From the NCBI GenBank assembly GCA_964467655.1, contig CAYXSN010000002.1, positions 27,327 to 91,326 of the forward strand: a stretch of 64,000 nucleotides of DNA, in the 5' to 3' direction. This document shows, in pieces, positions 3,621 through 60,014 of this stretch (the stretch's first letter is position 1; every line of letters begins with the position of its first letter). Below the pieces are notes generated by a model. That model ran no database searches, was not told where the DNA came from, and saw nothing but the letters and a program-made list of their open reading frames with translations. Origin of the DNA: an uncultured Candidatus Saccharimonadales bacterium (GTDB lineage: Bacteria; Patescibacteriota; Saccharimonadia; UBA4664). Position numbers and translations under genes: made by a program.

Positions 3621-3696
3621 GGGGCTGTAGCTCATCCGGTAGAGCGCTGCATTCGCATTGCAGAGGTAAGGGGTTCGAGTCCCCTCAGCTCCACCA
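3621..3696 (+). tRNA. tRNA-Ala (anticodon CGC), CCA encoded
   Basis: Cloverleaf GGGGCTGTAGCTCATCCGGTAGAGCGCTGCATTCGCATTGCAGAGGTAAGGGGTTCGAGTCCCCTCAGCTCCACCA. Anticodon loop TTCGCAT. G3:U70 alanine identity pair. GGTTCGA T-loop. Confidence 0.9.
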
Positions 3697-12089: not shown

Positions 12090-12710
12090 ATGACCGCTCA
12101 GACATTCGAGAATCCGTGGTTGATGGCTGGTACCGAAGGTACCGACAAGTACTACGTAGTCATCGCCACCGGCACCAAGCGCGTTGGCATTCGGGAGTAC
12201 GCTCCCGGCTACTTCCGCGTTCGCGTGGAGGTAGGCGACAAGTACAAGGGCCTGAGCGAGCGCCTCACGCGCGACACCGGCTGGAAGCAGCCGGGTGACA
12301 GCGGTGAGCAGCGCTTCTCGAAGACGACCTGCGCCGACGGCCTCGCCGCTGTGCTGGCCGAGGTCTTCGGGGCACTCAAGATCCAGCTCAATCCCAGGCT
12401 GGTGCCGGCCCTGGCCGCCGCGGCCCACGCCAAGGCGTTTGGAGTGCCGGAGGCGGAGGTTTCCGAGCCTCAGCCTCTGGTCGCCGAACCGGCTGCACCT
12501 GCCGCCGACGAGGCTCCCACCGAGGAGTCCGAGGTCCAGGAGCCGGCCGCAGCCACGGAGGCCACGCAGCTCGACGAGCTCGTCGAGCGCATGCTCGAAG
12601 GTATGGCGGCTGTTGCCACCGAAGCAACCGCCACGGCCGCCATGGTGCAGGACGTCTACCGGGCTGCCGTTGCTGCCGCCAAGGAGCGGCTGGACGCCTA
12701 CCGTTTCTGA
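12090..12710 (+). CDS. hypothetical protein (high-GC, Ala/Glu/Pro-rich C-terminus)
   Basis: GAGGAG RBS. GC is clearly higher than the flanks, and long ORFs on both strands are a typical high-GC artefact. No recognisable domain. Confidence 0.4.
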   Translation: MTAQTFENPWLMAGTEGTDKYYVVIATGTKRVGIREYAPGYFRVRVEVGDKYKGLSERLTRDTGWKQPGDSGEQRFSKTTCADGLAAVLAEVFGALKIQLNPRLVPALAAAAHAKAFGVPEAEVSEPQPLVAEPAAPAADEAPTEESEVQEPAAATEATQLDELVERMLEGMAAVATEATATAAMVQDVYRAAVAAAKERLDAYRF

Positions 12711-17308: not shown

Positions 17309-18921
<1,613 letters not shown>

Positions 18922-42785: not shown

Positions 42786-43133
42786 AGATATCAGTACAAA
42801 AAATGCCCGTTCTCGATTTGCGATGGATCGAGAACGGGCAGGGTGGGCTACACTTCATTGAGAGTGTGCCGCCGTGGGTCATGCCACGTTACTCCCGGCG
42901 CCGTCTGCGTCGGCCCATATAGCGCAGGTGGCCGAGCACGTCTCGGGCTGCCTCGGTATTACCGGCGTCCAAGGCTTTCCGCATATCCCTGAGGACCTCA
43001 TCGCCCTCCTGCTTGCCAAGGCCGGCTAGGCCAATCTCTTCATCGGTAGGCTCCGGCTCTGGCTTCCATCCGCGCATCGCACCACTGCCTTTCTTTGACT
43101 GGTTGGCTGAGGGTTCGTTGGTATAATGGGCTT

Positions 43134-43466
43134 ATGGCCACATCTCAGGACACAATCGATTTTCTGCTCGAACAGCTGGCGGAGCTGTCAGACCGTCTGA
43201 CTACCTGTCGGATGTTTGGCGAATATTGCCTGTATGTAGACGGCAAACCGACGGCATTCATTTGTGACGATCAGCTATTTTTGAAAATCACGACCGTCAG
43301 CCGCCAATATCTCGACGAGTCGTATAACGGTCAGGCCTACCCGGGTTCGAAGCCCTATCTGCGAATCACTCAAGATATATGGGAAGATCGGGATTGGCTG
43401 ACCAAAGTAGTAGCCGGTACTGCCGATAGCCTGCCCGCGCCAAAGCCCAAGCCGGGCCGGCGCTAG
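43134..43466 (+). CDS. TfoX/Sxy N-terminal-domain-like protein
   Basis: TIDFLLEQLAELSDRLTTCRMFGEYCLYVDGKPTAFICDDQLFLK matches the TfoX N-domain pattern. Confidence 0.4.
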   Translation: MATSQDTIDFLLEQLAELSDRLTTCRMFGEYCLYVDGKPTAFICDDQLFLKITTVSRQYLDESYNGQAYPGSKPYLRITQDIWEDRDWLTKVVAGTADSLPAPKPKPGRR

Positions 43467-43813: not shown

Positions 43814-44134
43814 ATGAGTGAAATGACCTCGCCGCCAGACTTTCGAGAACAAGAGATTGGTTCTTCGGATTTGGTTGTGCCAGGCAATCCTGAGCGGCCA
43901 TTAAATATATCTGAACCGCGTACACTTGAGGATGTTCCCCCGCCAGATGGTTTTATAGTCACCGATTCTGGCTTGGTTGCACCCAAACCGCCATCAACCA
44001 ATGAATCGCCAGAAGATCCGCCAAAACACCTCATCTTACCAGGCGCATCGGATGTGAGGCGGGTCACTGGCACGGTAGAGGCAGAGCCGACTTACGATGC
44101 GGCATATCTGTGGCTTGTCCACTTGCAGGTTTGA
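43814..44134 (+). CDS. hypothetical protein (possibly 5-prime part of a frameshifted gene with 44110..45636)
   Basis: 106 aa, Pro-rich; overlaps the next ORF in another frame. Confidence 0.25.
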   Translation: MSEMTSPPDFREQEIGSSDLVVPGNPERPLNISEPRTLEDVPPPDGFIVTDSGLVAPKPPSTNESPEDPPKHLILPGASDVRRVTGTVEAEPTYDAAYLWLVHLQV

Positions 44135-45636
44135 ACCGTTCGGTTGCCCATGCAAGTTTGGATCATCTCAGGGCAACCTTCGGAGATTTGCATCGCTATA
44201 CTGAAAACGACCCCGAATCGCGCGATGCAGTACTTGAGACCGTAAGGAGTATTTGCTCACCCGAAGAAACGCAAGCACTTCTGGCAGAATTCCATAAATT
44301 GACTGAGACTCTATCTGAGACGTTACCCGACAAAGCTATAGACGATGCGACGTTGTGGTCGTCACTAACCCTCATAGCAGACACAATTAGTATCAACCAA
44401 GATATGGCCGATATACCGCAGACAGAAGGATTACATCAGCTTTGCTTACGCGCTCTTAGTCACGAAGCCCCGTCTACTCAGGTTCTAGATTTTATATCTC
44501 GTTGCGAAATTACGAATGAGTTAGCCGACGCCTTGCTCGACAGAATAGATATCCATCCGAGTCATCCTCTTTACTGGATAGTGGCCGATAAGCGACCTGC
44601 CCATCCCAGGGTTCAGCGCCAGCGAGAGATGGTTCTACGGCTACAAGATCAAGACTCGTTCAGGCCAACCATGGATGACATCTATGAGTTTGGAAAACTT
44701 GTCCCACTGGGAAGCCTAATGAGCAGGCAATGGCCCCGATCTGGCTTAGAGATTGAGACAACGGTTTTTGGTGGGCCGGCAAAAGTACCCGATGGAGCCG
44801 TTATGGGTACAGATGTAGCTCGTCATGGAAATATCCTAGAACTACGCCTCGACCATGGAGGGCATCCCGAAGTGCTCACCTATGACGCAGCATGGCGGCG
44901 GAGGTATTTTGAGATCTGGCGTTGGGGGCGTGTCTCGAGGAGCGTGAATACTTCGATTCACTTGCATTCTGAAGGTGTTCTCAAGATAGGAAACGCCCAA
45001 GTGATGTTTGGCAGCGACACTGATGATTGCCGAATCAATAATCATGGGACAATCGAAGTACGAACTGTCCTCGAGGGCTACAAAGGCGGACAGGGCTATC
45101 CGGAGCTTCCTTCACCAATACTATTGGAGTTGCTACATAGCCTTGATATGTCTGACCCGGTGCTGCCACGCATCGCCGAGATGTACCTAAAAACAGGCGT
45201 GTATGGAAGCCGACTCAGTAGATCTACCAACGAGCTTGTTACCGCTCGTGACGGCTTAGCGTATTTACTGGAACGCGGCAGTGAGCACGAGCTTGAGACT
45301 TTGGCATATAATCTGGCAACGATCCCAGCCGAACATCAAGCCGAGGTGATAACTGTGATACTGAAACGCGGCAGTGATTCCGGACTCGAGGCGCTGGCTC
45401 GCAATCTGGCAACGATCCCAGCCGAGCATCAAACAAGGGTGATAACTGCGTTGTTGGAAAGAGACAACTCGCGTGGACTTGAGGTGCTGGCTCGCAATCT
45501 GGCAACGATCCCAGCCGAACATCAAGCCAGGGTAGTAGCCGCAGTATCGGAACGGGGATGTATTGTACCTGAATTATACAATTCTTCTAGGCGTTCACTA
45601 ACTATCGGAGCTAGCTCCAAAAATGGCGTTGCATGA
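44110..45636 (+). CDS. hypothetical protein with three C-terminal 31-aa HEAT-like tandem repeats
   Basis: Repeats LE.LA.NLATIPAEHQ..VI. encoded by three 93-bp tandem DNA repeats. Confidence 0.4.
   Translation: MACPLAGLNRSVAHASLDHLRATFGDLHRYTENDPESRDAVLETVRSICSPEETQALLAEFHKLTETLSETLPDKAIDDATLWSSLTLIADTISINQDMADIPQTEGLHQLCLRALSHEAPSTQVLDFISRCEITNELADALLDRIDIHPSHPLYWIVADKRPAHPRVQRQREMVLRLQDQDSFRPTMDDIYEFGKLVPLGSLMSRQWPRSGLEIETTVFGGPAKVPDGAVMGTDVARHGNILELRLDHGGHPEVLTYDAAWRRRYFEIWRWGRVSRSVNTSIHLHSEGVLKIGNAQVMFGSDTDDCRINNHGTIEVRTVLEGYKGGQGYPELPSPILLELLHSLDMSDPVLPRIAEMYLKTGVYGSRLSRSTNELVTARDGLAYLLERGSEHELETLAYNLATIPAEHQAEVITVILKRGSDSGLEALARNLATIPAEHQTRVITALLERDNSRGLEVLARNLATIPAEHQARVVAAVSERGCIVPELYNSSRRSLTIGASSKNGVA
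45271..45549 (+). repeat. 3 x 93-bp tandem repeat inside the 44110..45636 CDS
   Basis: Units beginning gaacgcggcagtga / aaacgcggcagtga / gaaagagacaactc all share ctggctcgcaatctggcaacgatcccagccga.catcaa. Confidence 0.6.
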
Positions 45637-45777
45637 AATCATTCATCCCTCATTTGTCTACATAAACAACTTCGCTTATGGACGTGTCAGTTAGGCGACC
45701 TGTCTCCAAGATCTAGCCAATCCTCGATATGTTTTTCTACTCTAGCCCTATATCTGATAGCGGGTTATAATTGAGGC

Positions 45778-45816
45778 CAACTATGAACAAATATGATCCT
45801 CACGCCCTCGAGGCCG
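45778..45816 (+). repeat. copy B of leuS promoter-proximal / 5-prime coding segment
   Basis: ccaactatgaacaaatatgatcctcacgccctcgagg preceded by a TATAAT box, as at leuS. Encodes a 29-codon MNKYDPHALE... peptide. Confidence 0.6.
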
Positions 45817-45825
45817 AGACGATCA

Positions 45826-46389
45826 TTAATCCTCGGCAGTATCTCCATGCGGCTGCATATCGTGGGCGGTAAGAACCTGATCGAGAATCCGCCTTCCGCC
45901 AGCAGTTGGTGGCCGTACGCCCATCTGGACGCTGTGAGGGTCATAACCACTAGTCCAGGGTATAATAATGGCCTCAACGCGATCATTCGTTGTGCCAAGC
46001 GGCGAGACCCAGGGCTCACCAATAGTCACATCAAACAGGGGACTAGCCAATTGCTCCGGAGTGAGGAGGCCGCTTCTCTGCTGTACTAAATCAGCAATCG
46101 CTTCAGAATCAAATACAATCTGACCAGGATGACCAGAAGCATCGCTTCTTTCTGTCTGTATCACGACTGATCCTATCTCATGGGCTAAAGGATCAGCTAT
46201 AGCGCGCGCTAGCGCCTCCATCGACGCAGTCCCGGATCTAAATATGCGTTCAACCTGACCATCGGGATATTGACGTAGCTCCTCTTGACCAAGCGGTGGA
46301 CTCAGTCGATTAAGATCTGTACGATCAGGGTCTACAATCTCAACTGGTGGTCGATTGTTATCTGGTTGATACTGCTCTATGTAGCTCAT
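45826..46389 (-). CDS. hypothetical protein
   Basis: 187 aa; no motif. Confidence 0.35.
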   Translation of the reverse strand: MSYIEQYQPDNNRPPVEIVDPDRTDLNRLSPPLGQEELRQYPDGQVERIFRSGTASMEALARAIADPLAHEIGSVVIQTERSDASGHPGQIVFDSEAIADLVQQRSGLLTPEQLASPLFDVTIGEPWVSPLGTTNDRVEAIIIPWTSGYDPHSVQMGVRPPTAGGRRILDQVLTAHDMQPHGDTAED

Positions 46390-46481: not shown

Positions 46482-49400
46482 ATGAACAAATACGATCCTC
46501 ACGCCCTCGAGCCTAAATGGCAGCAAGTTTGGGCCGACACCAACCTGTACGCCGCCACCGATGACGACCACACCCGCCAAAAATACTACTACCTAGTGGA
46601 GTTTCCGTACCCCAGCGGCGACGGTCTGCATGTCGGCCACGTCCTTAGCTACACGGCGCTCGACATCATGGCCCGCCACAAGCGCATGCAAGGCTACAAC
46701 GTGCTCTACCCCATGGGCTTCGACGAATTTGGCTTGCCCACCGAAAACTATGCCATCAAACACAAAATTGCCCCCCAGGTTGCCACGCAAGCAAATGTGG
46801 CCAACTTCCGCCGCCAACTAAAGTCACTTGGCCTAAGCTTCGACTGGAACCGCGAAGTGCGCACTTCCGACCCCAACTATTACAAGTGGACGCAGTGGAT
46901 CTTCCTCAAGCTGCTCGAAAAAGGCCTAGCTTATCAGGCCGAGCTGCCCATCAACTGGTGCCCGTTCTGTAAAACTGGCCTGGCGAATGAAGAAGTGGTT
47001 GACGGCAAGCACGAGCGCTGTGGCACCCCAGTCGAAAAGAAGCTGCTCACCCAGTGGATGCTTAAAATTACCGCCTACGCCGACCGCCTGGCCGAAGACC
47101 TCAAAACCGTCGATTACCTCGACAGGATCGCTACCCAGCAGATCAACTGGATCGGGCGAAGCGAAGGGGCGGAGATTGACTTTACGCTAGCCGATCACGA
47201 TTACGACGTGGCCGACAGCCTGAAGTTCACGCCTGAGCTGACCAAACTAGTACAGGCTGGCACCAAGACTAACACCATCCGGCTTGAGCCCAAGAATCTC
47301 AAGGTTGGCGATTATACCCGCCTCATCACCCGCTATGATGCTGATCGCACACAAAGCTTTGCCATCGCCAAGATCACCAAGGTTGAAAAGCACGCGTTAT
47401 CTGATATTCCCGTTGATTTGGGTGGTCACGAGCCGTTCGCCAACAAGGCCGAGCAACTTGCCAGCTACCGCAAATACTACGGCGACGCCGTTACCGCCGA
47501 AACTGAATTCACCATTTATTACTTTGAAACTGTTGCCAATACCGTTACCGTCTACACCACCCGCCCCGATACCATCTTTGGCGCTACCTTCCTGGTGGTG
47601 TCGCCCGAAGTGGCCAAAACCTGGATCGACAGCGGTTGGAAAGCCCCCAAACCGGCCGCCGAGTACATCGATGCCGCTCTCAAGGCCAGCGAGCTGTCGC
47701 GCCAGGAAGAGTCAAAAGTCAAAACCGGTGTCGATACCGGCATCACAGCCATCCATCCACTGACCGGCAATCCAGTGCCCGTCTGGGTGGCCGATTACGT
47801 CCTAGGCTCCTATGGCACCGGCGCCATCATGGCCGTGCCCGCCCACGACGAACGCGATTACGAGTTTGCCAAGGCCTTTGATTTACCTGTCACATATGTA
47901 GTTGAGCCTCGTACGGGCACCGGCCCCGATGCGCCTGTACAGCGGCCCAGCATCGTTGCCGTACTACTTGATCAATCTGGTGAACGGGTAGTAAGTATGG
48001 ACCACCACGGACGCCATGATAATTGGGGCGGCCATTTACTCATTGGCGGTGGCATAGACCAGGGTGAACAGCCAATTGACACGGCCCGTCGCGAAATAAT
48101 CGAAGAAACCGGCTACACTGATTTTGAGCTGGTCGAACAAGCTCCATTTCAGATCCATCATCAGTATTTCTCGGCTGAGAAGAAGATCAATCGGCTGGCG
48201 GTTACAACCGGTTTTCTCTTCAAGCTTACCAGTGACCAAAGAGCTGAGCTAAAGCTGACAGACAGCGAAAAACGCAATAGCGTTGAACCGGTCTGGCTGC
48301 CCATTACCGATGCTTTAACGAGCGTAAAAGACGAAATGCATTCGTTGTGGCTACGCTTTTTCACACAAGGCACAAGCTTTGCTGCCAACGGCCCCCTCAT
48401 CAACTCCGGCGAGTTCAACGGCTTGTCTGGCACCGAGGCCAAGCGCGCCATCATCAAGGCATTGTTCGACAAAGGCGCTGGCCGCGGCGCCACCAAATAC
48501 CGCCTGCGCGACTGGATCTTTAGCCGCCAGCACTACTGGGGTGAGCCGATCCCGGTGGTGCATTGCCCCAAAGACGGCGTCGTACCCGTACCCGTCGACC
48601 AACTACCCATCGAGCTGCCCAAAGTCGACCACTACGAGCCGACAGACACCGGCGAGTCGCCGCTGGCCGCCATCACCGACTGGGTGAACACCACGTGCCC
48701 CAAGTGTGGTGGGCCCGCCAAGCGCGAAACCGACACCATGCCCAACTGGGCCGGTTCAAGTTGGTACTTCTTGCGCTACACCGACCCGCACAACGCCAAA
48801 GAGTTTGCGAGTGCCGAAAACCTCAAGTACTGGACCCCTGTCGACCTCTACAACGGCGGCATGGAGCACACCACGCTCCACTTGCTCTACAGCCGCTTCT
48901 GGCACAAATTCCTCTACGACGAAGGCCTCGTGCCCACATCAGAGCCCTACGCCCGGCGCCGCAGTCACGGCATGATACTCGGACCCGACGGCCAAAAGAT
49001 GAGCAAATCCAAGGGCAACGTGATTAATCCAGACAGCGTGGTAGCGCAGTACGGCGCCGACACCATCAGGCTCTACGAAATGTTTATGGGCCCGTTTGAT
49101 GAGGTCAAAGCCTGGAGCGAAGACCATCTCAATGGTGTATCGCGCTTCATGTACCGGGTCTGGACCTGGCTGGACGACCTCACCGACGACGCCGAAACTC
49201 TTGCCGGATCAGTCGGCTACGAAAACGACCTTGGCGCCTTTACCGTGGCCACCGACAGGATCGTCCACAAAACGCTCAAGAAAGTGCACCACGACATCGA
49301 AGACATGCATTTCAACACCGCCGTGTCGGCCATGATGGAGCTGGTCAATTATCTAACGAGCGCCGACGTCAAACGCAAACTCCGCCAGGCCAATGCCGCC

Positions 49401-49748
49401 GACCTCAGGGCGCGCACGGTCCGCACCCTCGTGCTCATGCTGGCGCCCTTCGTGCCGCATCTGGCCGAAGAAATCTGGCACGAGCGACTGGGCCAAGAGG
49501 GGAGTGTCCACCGAGCACCATGGCCCAAATATGATCCAGAACTCATCAAAGACAACATTGTTACGGTAATCGTGCAGATCAATGGTAAATTGCGCGGTGA
49601 GCTGGTGGTGGCAGCCGATGCCACCGAGGACGACGTCAAGCAAGCCGCCCAAACCGATCCCAATGTGGCGCAGCACCTCGAAGGCAAAACCATTAGCAAG
49701 ACCATTGTGGTGCCCCGTAAGATCGTCAACTTTGTGGTGAAGCCCTAG
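46482..49748 (+). CDS. leuS: leucine--tRNA ligase with inserted ASCH/PUA-like and NUDIX domains
   Basis: Class-I HIGH (PYPSGDGLHVGHV) and KMSKS motifs; CP1 editing domain (TRPDTIFGATF, AHDERDYEFA); anticodon-binding C-terminus. 1088 aa versus the usual roughly 800-860. TATAAT 13 nt upstream. Confidence 0.9.
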   Translation: MNKYDPHALEPKWQQVWADTNLYAATDDDHTRQKYYYLVEFPYPSGDGLHVGHVLSYTALDIMARHKRMQGYNVLYPMGFDEFGLPTENYAIKHKIAPQVATQANVANFRRQLKSLGLSFDWNREVRTSDPNYYKWTQWIFLKLLEKGLAYQAELPINWCPFCKTGLANEEVVDGKHERCGTPVEKKLLTQWMLKITAYADRLAEDLKTVDYLDRIATQQINWIGRSEGAEIDFTLADHDYDVADSLKFTPELTKLVQAGTKTNTIRLEPKNLKVGDYTRLITRYDADRTQSFAIAKITKVEKHALSDIPVDLGGHEPFANKAEQLASYRKYYGDAVTAETEFTIYYFETVANTVTVYTTRPDTIFGATFLVVSPEVAKTWIDSGWKAPKPAAEYIDAALKASELSRQEESKVKTGVDTGITAIHPLTGNPVPVWVADYVLGSYGTGAIMAVPAHDERDYEFAKAFDLPVTYVVEPRTGTGPDAPVQRPSIVAVLLDQSGERVVSMDHHGRHDNWGGHLLIGGGIDQGEQPIDTARREIIEETGYTDFELVEQAPFQIHHQYFSAEKKINRLAVTTGFLFKLTSDQRAELKLTDSEKRNSVEPVWLPITDALTSVKDEMHSLWLRFFTQGTSFAANGPLINSGEFNGLSGTEAKRAIIKALFDKGAGRGATKYRLRDWIFSRQHYWGEPIPVVHCPKDGVVPVPVDQLPIELPKVDHYEPTDTGESPLAAITDWVNTTCPKCGGPAKRETDTMPNWAGSSWYFLRYTDPHNAKEFASAENLKYWTPVDLYNGGMEHTTLHLLYSRFWHKFLYDEGLVPTSEPYARRRSHGMILGPDGQKMSKSKGNVINPDSVVAQYGADTIRLYEMFMGPFDEVKAWSEDHLNGVSRFMYRVWTWLDDLTDDAETLAGSVGYENDLGAFTVATDRIVHKTLKKVHHDIEDMHFNTAVSAMMELVNYLTSADVKRKLRQANAADLRARTVRTLVLMLAPFVPHLAEEIWHERLGQEGSVHRAPWPKYDPELIKDNIVTVIVQINGKLRGELVVAADATEDDVKQAAQTDPNVAQHLEGKTISKTIVVPRKIVNFVVKP

Positions 49749-49753
49749 CTAAC

Positions 49754-50353
49754 ATGACGCGCCACGAAACACCAGATCCCCGAGAAGTTGATGGATTCGA
49801 AGCCGCCCAAAAACAAGGCCTCCTGCCATTAGTTTCGGACACAGCACCCACGCTAGAAATCCAGCCTCCAGCCGGTGCCATGCTAGATACTCACATTATT
49901 TCATCAGTAATTGGTTTTTTTGCTTGCGTCGTCGGTATCTTACTGATTGATAAATTTCTAAAACCACCTGACATCGTTTTTATAGGTCAGGTGGTGATTA
50001 CAGGCTCATTGATGTTCTGGTATTGGCTATGGAAAACAGCCAAAATCGGCGAAGTGGCCGTCAGTGAATTCAGTCGAGGCTATACCACTATTCAGAGATT
50101 AGTATTCGGTAACTTTTGGCTTGGATCATCCCGGACATCATGGTGGAATGATGATCGGATAGGATGGGACTTTACCGGTTTGTGGCGACTTGATCCCAAG
50201 AGTGGAGCTGTAATAGCAGCACCCAACAGAACTGTAACACCTCCCGGATTCTATCCATCACCATTCAAATCGGGCAAGTTTCAGCAATGGACAGGCAGTG
50301 AGTGGATATCAGTGTACCGTGACGCCAATAAAAAAATGGGAGAGTCCTTCTAG
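49754..50353 (+). CDS. membrane protein with C-terminal DUF2510-like motif
   Basis: Two TM helices; C-terminal PPGFYPSPFKSGKFQQWTGSEW resembles the GWYPDP...RWWDG..WT motif. Confidence 0.35.
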   Translation: MTRHETPDPREVDGFEAAQKQGLLPLVSDTAPTLEIQPPAGAMLDTHIISSVIGFFACVVGILLIDKFLKPPDIVFIGQVVITGSLMFWYWLWKTAKIGEVAVSEFSRGYTTIQRLVFGNFWLGSSRTSWWNDDRIGWDFTGLWRLDPKSGAVIAAPNRTVTPPGFYPSPFKSGKFQQWTGSEWISVYRDANKKMGESF

Positions 50354-50400
50354 CCTGCCGGGCGATTGAACCACACAAAGTCACTCTCGATCTTACGGTA

Positions 50401-50949
50401 GTGATCGGCTATTATAGCGATACATGCGGCGAGAGTGTCAGCGTCAAACTTCACTTACGACAAGCGGCAGCATATTCATTTCGAGTAGCCGTGGCCGGAA
50501 TCCCTGGAGATAACTGGCTTAGCTTAGCCCTACTGGTGGGGCGCGCTGCCAACTGGTGCGACGACATGCGCATCGTCTTCGACCCGCAGATAGTGAGTGA
50601 AGTGCTGCGTGCGCGCGGTTTTCTGCCCCTTCAACCGGGCGAAACCATGCCAGAAGAAGGCTACCTCGAGAAGCTAGCCTATGTAATTCGTTTTGCAGCT
50701 CATGGCGGTGAATGCGGCTACCTGCATCCCGACACCGGCATGACCGTCGCATCCATCGCTCAAGATCACAGAGTACAGCCACTTGTCGGACGATTCTATC
50801 AGGATGGTGAACTCAATCCGGGGTCGAATGATGTAGTGCTGAACTTGTTATTTGTGCAAACTGCGCAGGTGGAAGACGCCCAGCGCAATGAGGAGTGCCA
50901 TTACGGCAGCTGCCCCAAAGAACACATACATAGCGTACTGAGCGATTAG
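50401..50949 (+). CDS. hypothetical protein
   Basis: 182 aa; its 3-prime 100 nt overlap the convergent ORF 50848..51402, so one of the two may be shorter or spurious. Confidence 0.3.
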   Translation: MIGYYSDTCGESVSVKLHLRQAAAYSFRVAVAGIPGDNWLSLALLVGRAANWCDDMRIVFDPQIVSEVLRARGFLPLQPGETMPEEGYLEKLAYVIRFAAHGGECGYLHPDTGMTVASIAQDHRVQPLVGRFYQDGELNPGSNDVVLNLLFVQTAQVEDAQRNEECHYGSCPKEHIHSVLSD

Positions 50950-51402
50950 GCCAAAGCGCGAAAAGGCATAGGCAGTAAGCAAGCTCGACCTGAGCATATC
51001 ACCCTGGAATAAGGTGGTTTTCTGGCCAGCCAGCTTCTGGTCGGTCGGGTTGGCCCGGGACAGCTCACTCACTTCGGAATAAGTTTTACCGTCGGCGATC
51101 TTCATCATGTGCACCCAAATGAATTCATCGGCATAGGCTTTGGCCTTATCGCCGTTATCCACTTGCTGGCCGGCATATTTTTGGAGGCCAGGGAACTCTT
51201 TGGGGTCAAGCGCAGCGCTCCCGGCTGGCGGGAAGAACACCTTTTCCTGGACAAGCTGACTCTTAATCTGGTCATCGGCAAACCGGTTAGCCCATTGCGC
51301 CAGAAAGCCACCACCGGTAAGGGCGACAAACACAATGACGCCGAGTCCTATTAATACCTTATCAAGCTGTTTACGACTGCTTTGCTTCACGTTGCGTTCC
51401 AA
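50848..51402 (-). CDS. hypothetical membrane protein (N- and C-terminal TM helices)
   Basis: 184 aa; TM helices at both ends. Confidence 0.4.
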   Translation of the reverse strand: MERNVKQSSRKQLDKVLIGLGVIVFVALTGGGFLAQWANRFADDQIKSQLVQEKVFFPPAGSAALDPKEFPGLQKYAGQQVDNGDKAKAYADEFIWVHMMKIADGKTYSEVSELSRANPTDQKLAGQKTTLFQGDMLRSSLLTAYAFSRFGLIAQYAMYVFFGAAAVMALLIALGVFHLRSLHK

Positions 51403-59016: not shown

Positions 59017-59497
59017 CAATCGCCATCTTGGCCGCATCGTGGCTATGCAGACGCTGTACGAACATGATTTCCGGGGCGGTGAAGCCTCAGGACTCAAGTT
59101 ACCGGCTATCCTCGAGCGCAACCTTGATGAGTTTAGGTCAAACATCGAAGACACCAATTTTGTCCAAGATGTAGTTGATGGTGTGTCGGCTCACCAAGCG
59201 GACATCGACGCCATTATCGGCCCGGCGGCCCCCGAATGGCCGGTCGATCAAATTGCCAAGATCGATAAAATCATTCTGAGGATCGGCGTGTACGAACTGA
59301 TTATCAAGCGCGAAGTACCTCCCAAAGTAGCTATCAACGAAGCCGTCGAACTGGCCAAAACCTTTGGCGGCGAAAACTCAAGTAAATTTATCAATGGTGT
59401 CTTGGGCACCATTTACCGCTCAAGCGATTTTTATGAACCAGAACCAGACCCCGAATCCCAACCAACCGAAAACCCAACGGAAGCCAATCAAGCGTAA
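59009..59497 (+). CDS. nusB: transcription antitermination factor NusB (with acidic C-terminal tail)
   Basis: [18 protein letters not shown]-terminus and NusB helical core. Start uncertain: GTG at 59009 or ATG at 59039. Confidence 0.7.
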
Positions 59498-60014
59498 GCA
59501 GTTCCATCGCCCCGGAGGTAAAAATAGTAAAACTCCCGGCCGCATCAGGGCGACCAGGGAGTATACGGCCGGTGGCGTGGTATTTCGAAGACAAGCAGAT
59601 AGTATCGAGATCCTCATGATTCAGGACCGTCAGGGCCGCTGGAGTATCCCCAAAGGCCATGTCGAGCCAGGTGAATCTATCGAGCAGACAGCCGTGCGCG
59701 AGGTCGCCGAAGAAACCGGCTTGAATCATTTGAAACTGGGTGACAAGTTGGACAAACTGCACTTTTTCTACCGTCGCGAGGGCAAGCTTATTTTTATGAC
59801 GACCCATGTTTTTCTGATGGAAGCCTTGGGCGACACCGATAACATCGTAGCCGAAAATTCGGAAGGTATTGTTGACGCCCGGTGGTTTGACGCGAGCAAA
59901 GCCTTGGGCTTGATCGAATACCGGGATACCGAAAGGCTGTTCAGGATGGCCTTGGGCAGGCTAAACCATCCTCTGGAAACTGCTGCGCGAAGCGGCAAAA
60001 CTGGAGTATCATAA
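59433..60014 (+). CDS. NUDIX hydrolase (start uncertain)
   Basis: Nudix box [23 protein letters not shown]. No in-frame ATG/GTG between the nusB stop and the first beta-strand, despite a GGAGG at 59512. The annotated start at 59433 overlaps nusB. Confidence 0.65.

Follow-up and report, generated by a model that had tools for sequence, protein, structure and literature searches.

The leuS gene at positions 46482-49748 (forward strand, as for all parts of the gene given below) of the DNA analysed here, a stretch of 64,000 nucleotides from contig CAYXSN010000002.1 of an uncultured Candidatus Saccharimonadales bacterium (hereafter the window), encodes a bacterial-type leucyl-tRNA synthetase (LeuRS) of 1088 aa in which two further domains, an ASCH domain and a Nudix hydrolase domain, are nested within the CP1 editing domain. 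Judged against its homologues, the protein represents one combination within a widespread family of Patescibacteria (candidate phyla radiation, CPR) whose LeuRS has three hotspots permissive for insertion. The initial annotation of the window had treated it as a singular protein with an unusual adaptation. We concur that it is unusual; however, it belongs to a large recombining cassette system that is found across many CPR lineages and touches also ProRS, a ValS-like protein, Pth and an M17 peptidase.

The second of the two inserts, at residues ~476-636 (47907..48389), is a Nudix domain by the Pfam search (PF00293, residues 488-612, 51-54 bits, cut-off 21.1), by its structural model and by Foldseek. 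Its Nudix box GGGIDQGEQPIDTARREIIEETGY (residues 522-545, 48045..48116) matches the consensus GX5EX7REUXEEXGU exactly (residues 523-545), including the metal-binding Glu residues, and its metal-binding REx2EE hardly varies among 68 homologous inserts at this site. In the subfamily alignment, Tyr562 (48165..48167) lies in the X-loop, 17 residues past the Nudix box, and is followed by KxxNR (K567...R571). Among 93 members of the subfamily, 80 have a Tyr at +16-18 and 92 a Tyr or Phe, while none (0/93) has the Pro of ADP-ribose diphosphatases. According to a statement in PMC5389931, which cites Dunn et al. (1999), a Tyr about 16-18 residues past the Nudix box marks hydrolases of diadenosine polyphosphates (ApnA) and a Pro marks ADP-ribose diphosphatases. 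The subfamily, called LeuS-type here, has in addition a motif of its own, [FY]xxxxKxxNR, with an invariant Lys and Trp.

When modelled alone with AF2, the Nudix insert gave a pLDDT of 92.0 and a pTM of 0.88, and Foldseek returned 545 Nudix matches in the PDB at E<=1e-3, which identifies the alpha/beta/alpha fold of Nudix enzymes. Among these neighbours are 2AZW, many entries of E. coli RppH (including forms bound to diadenosine tetraphosphate, Ap4A, and to RNA), mycobacterial MutT1/Rv2985, the ApnA hydrolases of Aquifex, Thermus and Chlamydia, and Ap4A/Ap6A hydrolases. The best PDB match of the window domain by sequence is the lupin Ap4A hydrolase 1F3Y (E 2e-6), and a profile of the Nudix inserts matches AvrM14-A/B, 2AZW, NudB and 1F3Y. 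The top NCBIfam matches are RppH models, with scores of 25.9-30 bits for NF001936 (cut-off 118) and 24-28 bits for NF001938 (cut-off 116). The insert thus resembles the RppH/ApnA group but is, by these scores, no RppH orthologue.

The first insert, at residues ~237-355 (47190..47546), is an ASCH domain, as indicated by the Pfam search and by its structural model and Foldseek. It exceeds the cut-off of PF04266 (21.2 bits) over residues 247-349, both within the whole protein (31 bits) and as isolated insert (35.6 bits). It carries the catalytic octapeptide G-T-K-T-N-T-I-R (residues 260-267, 47259..47282) of the 'GKTR' type (G-x-K-x-x-T-x-R) known from YqfB, as seen from the motif and from an alignment with YqfB. 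Across 10 LeuRS inserts the G, T and R are each conserved in 10/10 and the K in 9/10. The insert modelled alone reached a pLDDT of 91.4 and a pTM of 0.81, and every top Foldseek match was an ASCH protein, the best superposition being that on E. coli YqfB (9KYF; TM-score 0.68/0.78, root-mean-square deviation 2.8 Å), followed by EF3133, ZmASCH and PH0355. Searches of the PDB by ASCH sequence were nearly empty, so that the fold search was needed. The numbering of the YqfB sequence used for the alignment (K21/T24/R26/E74) agrees with that of a recent preprint (10.64898/2026.02.27.708502). There, all 19 of the 19 ASCH proteins assayed, none of which is the window protein, are reported to have removed N4-acetylcytidine (ac4C) from tRNA, and the octapeptide Lys plus Thr/Glu to be essential, the octapeptide residues in YqfB being Lys21, Thr24 and Arg26 (10.64898/2026.02.27.708502). 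Both modules of the window protein thus appear catalytically intact and are predicted enzymes. A Pfam scan of the whole LeuRS and of the excised inserts showed only ASCH and NUDIX as extra domains and no Hint/intein or endonuclease domain.

The surrounding protein is a functional-looking bacterial LeuRS. The reading frame is single and unbroken, and its product scores 980.7 bits against TIGR00396 (leuS_bact, cut-off 548.4), matching the model in three stretches around the inserts, and 741 bits against the LeuRS of Thermus thermophilus (1H3N). The class I catalytic core has its HIGH signature as HVGH (residues 50-53, 46629..46640) and its KMSKS signature at residues 839-843 (48996..49010). The anticodon-binding domain occupies residues 928-1048 (49263..49625; PF08264, 91 bits). 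The CP1 editing domain (residues ~223-650, 47148..48431) is interrupted by both inserts; PF13603 matches it in three stretches, best at residues 350-482, and it aligns to T. thermophilus residues 243-375 and from 378 onward. Both editing-site motifs are intact by motif and by the 1H3N alignment: the T-rich motif TTRPDT (residues 359-364, 47556..47573) and AHDERD with its conserved Asp (residues 454-459, 47841..47858). The leucine-specific domain (T. thermophilus ~580-637) has no counterpart in the window protein, the alignment leaping from T. thermophilus 580 to 637 over 4 residues (48990-49000, residues ~835-839). An identical 1088-aa protein was called on four independently assembled contigs (ENA, Logan), for which reason we do not consider it a chimera, and the combination of ASCH and Nudix recurs in five further proteins whose sources differ (P0002, P0004, P0005, P0007 and P0087).

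In the alignment with 1H3N, the first insertion site (site 1) lies between T. thermophilus residues 236 and 243 (loop 237-242), in the turn of the first CP1 beta-hairpin and a few residues before the T-rich motif. The second (site 2) lies between residues ~363 and 378, in the hairpin that follows the AHDxRDYEFA helix. By these positions both sites are inside the editing domain and not at junctions with the catalytic core. The initial annotation had placed them at editing/catalytic junctions, and in this respect it has to be corrected. Other parts of it held well: a genuine LeuRS of 1088 aa, an ASCH-like first insert at 47200-47530, a second insert with a perfect Nudix box, and about 20 residues at the second position in ordinary LeuRS, where insert-free relatives have 16-30. 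Its description of the first insert as an 'ASCH/PUA-like barrel' was right as to the fold and too modest otherwise, the YqfB-type catalytic octapeptide being present. That the inserts are ordinary LeuRS subdomains can be excluded, as both exceed the Pfam cut-offs and plain relatives have only 6-14 and 16-30 residues at the two sites. Taken together, the gene encodes what looks like a working synthetase with two autonomous modules, predicted to fold independently, in surface hairpins of CP1.

In the complete 1.32-Mb genome CP064960.1 (L001), the one leuS seen occupies the syntenic position and is the closest orthologue of the window gene from a complete genome. It has the Nudix domain but no ASCH domain, the two genes differing there by 318 nt (106 codons) in an indel at window positions 47207-47540 that is clean and keeps the reading frame. 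At the DNA level the two genes are ~80% identical in the backbone and 76-79% in the Nudix region. The ratio of nonsynonymous to synonymous substitution rates (dN/dS) between them is 0.063 for the Nudix insert and 0.041, 0.099 and 0.053 for three segments of the LeuRS core. The Nudix insert is therefore as constrained as the synthetase itself and stands under strong purifying selection. The CP064960.1 gene is split into open reading frames (ORFs) of 733 and 249 aa by a 1-nt deletion at 12199-12202, right in the KMSKS codons (window position 48998); either a homopolymer was misread in sequencing or the frameshift in this essential gene is real.

A survey of LeuRS architectures, based on an alignment of the 120 closest homologues (with the source names Saccharimonadia, Patescibacteria, Parcubacteria and Doudnabacteria), showed the same insertions in relatives, in mosaic combinations and at three hotspots. 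Site 1, basally 6-14 aa long, can hold an ASCH domain (~120 aa), an alpha/beta serine hydrolase of PF06821 (~170-190 aa) or a Nudix domain. Site 2, basally 16-30 aa, can hold one, two or three Nudix domains, a serine hydrolase or a decayed Nudix domain. Site 3, located past the HCPxC knuckle, holds a domain of ~130 aa in some relatives and is without an insert in the window protein; the domain scores 19.2 bits against Pfam ASCH in P0003 (cut-off 21.2) and gives no match in P0027 or P0059, so that we regard it as ASCH-like but unconfirmed. P0003 (1616 aa) has five extra domains, of which three are Nudix domains, one is a serine hydrolase and one is the domain at site 3. Some close relatives have a plain LeuRS of ~810-830 aa. 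In P0014, site 2 holds 116 aa that look like a shortened Nudix remnant with the Nudix box destroyed, an apparent intermediate in the decay and loss of a cassette.

The distribution of the architecture is broad. A profile search of 1.84 billion representative sequences retrieved at least 150 clusters of the LeuS-type Nudix subfamily at E<=1e-30, and 115 of the 150 best representatives are LeuRS. A search with the Nudix insert alone against a word-indexed set of 5.8 billion gave only 2 matches and was uninformative except for P0121, the representative profile search being the better instrument. A scan of GTDB species representatives with a tightened Nudix alignment gave 80 loci, with the Nudix domain inside LeuRS at site 2 in 76, from Saccharibacteria, Paceibacterota, Taylor-, Kaiser-, Berkel-, Peri-, Moran-, Magasanik-, Buchanan-, Adler- and Gracilibacteria. 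LeuRS with a Nudix domain at site 2 was also seen in metagenome-assembled genomes (MAGs) labelled Bacilli (rabbit gut, 'Lapin'), Erysipelotrichaceae, Muribaculaceae, Gammaproteobacteria, Woesearchaeota and Methanosarcinales (L073, L075, L076, L078, L081, L082, L087-L091, L016, L037, L040, L050, L074, L080 and L083). These are either mis-binned CPR contigs or a sign that the architecture has spread beyond Patescibacteria.

The cassettes are gained, lost and exchanged among close relatives. On a tree of the backbone with the inserts masked, architectures are mosaic, and presence and absence switch between nearest neighbours. The Nudix inserts sort into about 11 types, and their pairwise identities (mean 33%) show no correlation with those of the backbones that carry them (mean 65%; Spearman -0.003). 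The most telling pair consists of the contigs of P0008 and P0012 (L004 and L005), which are 100% identical in DNA for 7.3 kb from the 3' edge of the Nudix insert and 89-100% identical in the 5' leuS backbone, whereas their Nudix cassettes are only 51-67% identical and a serine-hydrolase cassette of ~530 nt is present in only one of them. We read this difference as the result of recombination that replaced a cassette in what is essentially a single population. As both contigs stop a short way upstream of leuS, a strain-switch assembly artefact is conceivable in this pair alone; such an artefact cannot account for the overall lack of correlation between Nudix inserts and backbones. Nudix cassettes have thus probably been exchanged between LeuRS backbones by recombination via the highly conserved leuS flanks. 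The ASCH cassette is of one type and its divergence follows that of the backbone (rho 0.62, p 5e-6), which suggests mostly vertical descent with repeated loss. Its absence from the closest relatives of the window protein would then be explained by loss, a recent gain in the window lineage being less parsimonious.

The LeuS-type Nudix domain was also found outside LeuRS. It is inserted in the class II ProRS P0354 (643 aa), between HGTP_anticodon and ProRS-C_1, and about 24 of the 150 best representatives are free-standing proteins of 150-207 aa. We examined the contexts of six free-standing genes, four from these representatives and two from GTDB loci (L061 and L066), and an enzyme handling aminoacyl-tRNA is a neighbour in four of the six. 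In L010 the Nudix gene lies 2 nt upstream of a plain, insert-free leuS, an arrangement that we read as the classic complement of a fusion (a 'Rosetta-stone' case). Another precedes, again by 2 nt, a leuS with a Nudix domain of its own, a third follows tsaD and lies 5 nt upstream of a ValS-like gene, and that of L061 overlaps the end of pth, with hisS nearby. Stand-alone proteins of ~286 aa (L021 3701-4564 and L058 3686-4546; also P0361 and P0382), from MAGs labelled Clostridia/Clostridiales, consist of a degenerate C-terminal piece of CP1 with a Nudix domain at the equivalent of site 2; the AHDxRD motif with its Asp is replaced there (LHVKEH/AHIPEH), and they may represent a detached CP1-Nudix module.

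Free-standing relatives of the ASCH insert are common in CPR genomes (205 matches, mostly 105-120 aa, 35-61% identity). The closest, P0123 (L007 1075-1425), is 61% identical and matches up to the edges of the insert. It lies on a contig of 2 kb with six tiny ORFs, two of which match PHROG families of no assigned function, and phage or mobile DNA may therefore be a further vehicle of the ASCH module. Nudix genes occur near the free-standing ASCH genes of L008 and L092, and the window has a free-standing Nudix gene of its own between nusB and rnc (59364-60014), at a position kept in the relatives L002, L004 and L005. The former two are not of the LeuS type, and the window gene is only ~30% identical to LeuS-type inserts, from which it follows that the genome has at least two distinct Nudix lineages and that these genes provide no operon link between ASCH and the LeuS-type Nudix.

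The neighbourhood of leuS in the window looks like a local hotspot of gene-content change. Blocks of hypothetical genes flank it upstream (43814-46389, three to four genes) and downstream (49754-51402, three genes), for none of which a Pfam match is on record; both are absent from the syntenic CP064960.1, where a TfoX_N gene abuts leuS and leuS abuts a gene with a DnaJ domain. One ORF of the upstream block (508 aa, 44110-45636) ends in three repeats of ~33 aa (...LARNLATIPAEHQ...). The TfoX_N homologue of the window, a predicted competence regulator, is located ~3 kb upstream of leuS at approximately 43133-43465 (L002 6653-6985) and would be compatible with natural transformation as a route of cassette exchange. 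As for RNA genes, the 64-kb window yielded just two, both for tRNA-Ala (3621-3696 and 17309-17384; anticodons CGC and GGC), with no tRNA-Leu gene near leuS.

As to function, the reading we favour, to which we give somewhat less than an even chance, is one of action in cis with the synthetase: the Nudix domain would clear dinucleoside polyphosphates, and the ASCH domain would be an N4-acyl-cytidine amidohydrolase and/or an RNA-binding module on tRNA(Leu). Aminoacyl-tRNA synthetases (aaRSs) are established producers of Ap4A. Leucyl-adenylate in the synthetic site would react with ATP or another nucleoside triphosphate to give Ap4A and its relatives; the Nudix domain would hydrolyse these dinucleoside polyphosphates, or closely related adenylylated by-products, and their clearance would thereby be coupled to the enzyme that makes them. 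The ASCH domain, acting on ac4C-type modifications and/or binding RNA, would be delivered to the tRNA(Leu) docked on CP1. A functional link with aminoacyl-tRNA enzymes is supported by the prevalence of LeuRS among carriers of the Nudix subfamily (115 of the 150 best representatives, 76 of 80 GTDB loci), by the insertion in ProRS and by the neighbours of four of the six free-standing genes. Aminoacyl-adenylates, one of the Nudix substrates suggested in the initial annotation, find no direct support, whereas its alternative, Ap4A, fits the closest relatives in sequence and structure as well as the X-loop Tyr.

Several observations weigh against this proposal. Assignment of a substrate from Nudix similarity is weak, because one Nudix fold is much like another, the model reaches TM-scores of no more than 0.6-0.7, and the RppH models of NCBIfam score far under their cut-offs. 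Clearance of Ap4A leaves unexplained the diversity of the Nudix inserts (about 33% mean identity), their fast exchange and their stacking up to three, and likewise the serine-hydrolase, ASCH and GNAT modules, the first two of which occupy the same sites. Among the free-standing Nudix contexts two of six are without an aaRS neighbour, as are all three of the contexts examined for free-standing ASCH relatives, and the LeuS-type Nudix domain is also found in an M17 leucyl aminopeptidase (P0352, 1318 aa) together with two GNAT domains, one of them RimL/MccE-like (PF13302). The putative equivalent of YqfB Glu74 is present in only ~6/10 of the ASCH inserts, in a region that is uncertainly aligned by MAFFT; the window protein has there the E of 'GHE' (residues ~317-319). 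Furthermore, we know of no ac4C on bacterial tRNA(Leu).

A different function, unlikely in our estimation, would be that the inserted hydrolases, and GNAT domains in related proteins, are antidotes that detoxify natural aaRS inhibitors. As inhibitors, 'Trojan-horse' antibiotics of an aminoacyl-nucleotide or -nucleoside type, similar to microcin C, agrocin 84 or phosmidosine, would be released by hosts or competitors; placement on the target would give local protection, and an arms race would lead to the diversity and swapping of cassettes. Very fast turnover and highly diverse Nudix types, despite strong purifying selection within types, are in line with this, as are the several hydrolase chemistries at the same sites and the stacked domains. 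The fusion of a LeuS-type Nudix domain to an M17 leucyl aminopeptidase and two GNATs, one of them RimL/MccE-like, also speaks for it, since PepA-type peptidases process microcin C and RimL/MccE-type GNATs detoxify it. The targets include LeuRS and ProRS, and natural adenylate mimics are known for both. NCBIfam moreover has a model named 'IleRS with N-acetyltransferase domain' (NF040702), and RBBP9, a member of PF06821, hydrolyses the aminoacyl ester of a nucleoside analogue according to a reference cited in PMC7730578. On the other side, the ASCH cassette co-diverges with the backbone, unlike what an arms race would produce, and the defence hidden Markov models of PADLOC-DB, a library for phage defence and not for antibiotic resistance, gave no match at E<=0.01 to any of the three cassettes (Nudix, ASCH and serine hydrolase). 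No inhibitor is known in these habitats, nor are Nudix enzymes known to cleave acyl-phosphoramidate or sulfamoyl linkages.

It is equally improbable, to our mind, that the cassettes are passengers, housekeeping enzymes for nucleotide sanitation or ac4C nucleoside salvage that are parked in permissive loops and have no mechanistic coupling to LeuRS. Their host would be a highly expressed essential gene whose conserved flanks serve as homology arms for their spread in naturally competent, genome-reduced bacteria. The abundance of free-standing homologues of both domains in CPR genomes, the mosaic presence and absence among close relatives, the insertion in unrelated hosts such as the M17 peptidase, and the position of the sites in distal hairpin loops, structurally tolerant of insertion, all agree with such a role, and so do the possibly phage-borne P0123 and the TfoX_N gene upstream of leuS. 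However, the Nudix subfamily is overwhelmingly located in or next to aminoacyl-tRNA enzymes (115/150 in LeuRS, others in ProRS or in operons with leuS, valS-like and pth genes), an arrangement such as that of L010, where only 2 nt separate the free-standing gene from the plain leuS that follows it, would hardly be expected unless the two were linked in function or co-expressed, and the same three families recur at different sites where random parking would sample more. Diversity, stacking and fast exchange by themselves fit antidotes and passengers alike.

Additional proofreading, in which the Nudix domain would hydrolyse misactivated aminoacyl-adenylates before transfer and the other hydrolases would serve post-transfer editing or hygiene of the tRNA 3' end on CP1, seems distinctly improbable. 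Both inserts are located in CP1, which receives the tRNA 3' end, the subfamily is tied to the class Ia editing enzymes LeuRS and ValS-like as well as to ProRS and Pth, which all handle aminoacyl or peptidyl esters, and the serine esterase found as an alternative cassette at these sites belongs to the RBBP9 family, for which cleavage of an aminoacyl-nucleoside ester is cited in PMC7730578. Yet an aminoacyl-adenylate is a mixed acyl-phosphate anhydride and not a nucleoside diphosphate linked to X, the X-loop signature indicates substrates of the ApnA type, and many close relatives are entirely without inserts. The canonical editing motifs of CP1 are intact, so that there is no editing deficit to compensate, and no Nudix enzyme is known to us to hydrolyse an aminoacyl-adenylate.

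The notion that the extra length stems from an assembly chimera or a mis-called ORF can be set aside as having next to no chance, for although the DNA is of metagenomic origin and L004 and L005, the example of cassette swapping, both stop 40-90 nt upstream of leuS, it is excluded by the continuous frame, the four identical contigs, the confident folds of both inserts, the dN/dS of the Nudix insert and the recurrence of the architecture in many assemblies and 76 GTDB genomes.

The action of the modules in cis can be placed in a wider frame, which we consider possible though rather doubtful. In CPR, leuS, and to a lesser extent other genes for handling aminoacyl-tRNA, would be a protein-level 'cassette platform' for self-folding hydrolase domains (Nudix, ASCH, serine hydrolase, GNAT), which would sit in surface hairpins, be shuffled via conserved flanks and be selected for action in cis on the ligands of LeuRS. 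To give one example, where the synthetase or tRNA(Leu) comes under attack by some agent, the cassettes would serve as antidotes or as repair enzymes.

Compared with known systems, the window protein shares with the bacterial LeuRS of T. thermophilus (1H3N/2BYT) and E. coli (4AQ7) the class Ia core, the HIGH and KMSKS signatures, the T-rich and AHDxRD motifs of CP1 and the anticodon-binding and C-terminal domains, but differs from them by the two extra enzyme domains in CP1 hairpins and by the missing leucine-specific domain. Its ASCH insert has the fold, the size (~105-120 aa) and the GKTR-type octapeptide of E. coli YqfB and of prokaryotic ASCH amidohydrolases, i.e., ac4C amidohydrolases or proposed tRNA ac4C erasers; unlike YqfB, it is inserted in-frame in a domain of another enzyme, is only ~20% identical and belongs to a set of inserts in which the putative Glu74 equivalent is not conserved throughout. 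The Nudix insert has the Nudix box and X-loop Tyr in common with RppH/NudH and ApnA hydrolases (4S2X/7SP3, 1F3Y, Aquifex 3I7U, Thermus Ndx1 1VC8; also AvrM14 8DP8 and E. faecalis 2AZW), from which it is set apart by an identity of 15-22%, by the motif of its subfamily and by its being mainly embedded in, or operonic with, aaRS genes. Domain accretion by aaRSs is a known phenomenon, and the IleRS of NF040702 and eukaryotic aaRSs are likewise essential synthetases that gained a separately folding domain. What is unusual in the CPR LeuRS is that the domains are nested in CP1 and not terminal, that they fill three sites combinatorially with as many as five in one protein, and that exchange takes place at the population level, between near-identical backbones. 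In their sporadic, mosaic presence at fixed sites of a conserved essential gene, incongruent with the phylogeny of the host gene, the cassettes recall inteins and homing elements; in contrast to these they have no Hint or endonuclease domain, stay in the mature protein under purifying selection and presumably spread by homologous recombination. A full-text literature search turned up no account of a LeuRS, or of any other CPR aaRS, with Nudix, ASCH or hydrolase insertions, the claim of novelty extending as far as the searchable library. Automatic product names do hint at the fusion, e.g., 'leucyl-tRNA synthetase/8-oxo-dGTP pyrophosphatase MutT.../predicted alpha/beta hydrolase' at JGI.

The aaRSs are among the most conserved enzymes known, and the architecture of bacterial LeuRS has been considered settled. 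The new aspect of this work is that in a large bacterial radiation the editing domain of LeuRS carries up to five extra domains that behave as exchangeable cassettes. This bears on the way in which genome-reduced symbionts acquire and trade functions, on the tolerance of CP1 to domain insertion, a property of use to engineering, and on annotation, as such genes are sometimes named only 'class I tRNA ligase family protein'. With the modules acting in cis, if they do so, a synthetase would be coupled to the clearing of its own alarmone-like by-products such as Ap4A, an eraser of tRNA modification would be aimed by fusion at a specific tRNA, and resistance to synthetase inhibitors would possibly be built in. 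If leuS is indeed a platform for cassettes, it would represent an unrecognised mode of exchanging accessory functions and of aaRS quality control or self-defence.

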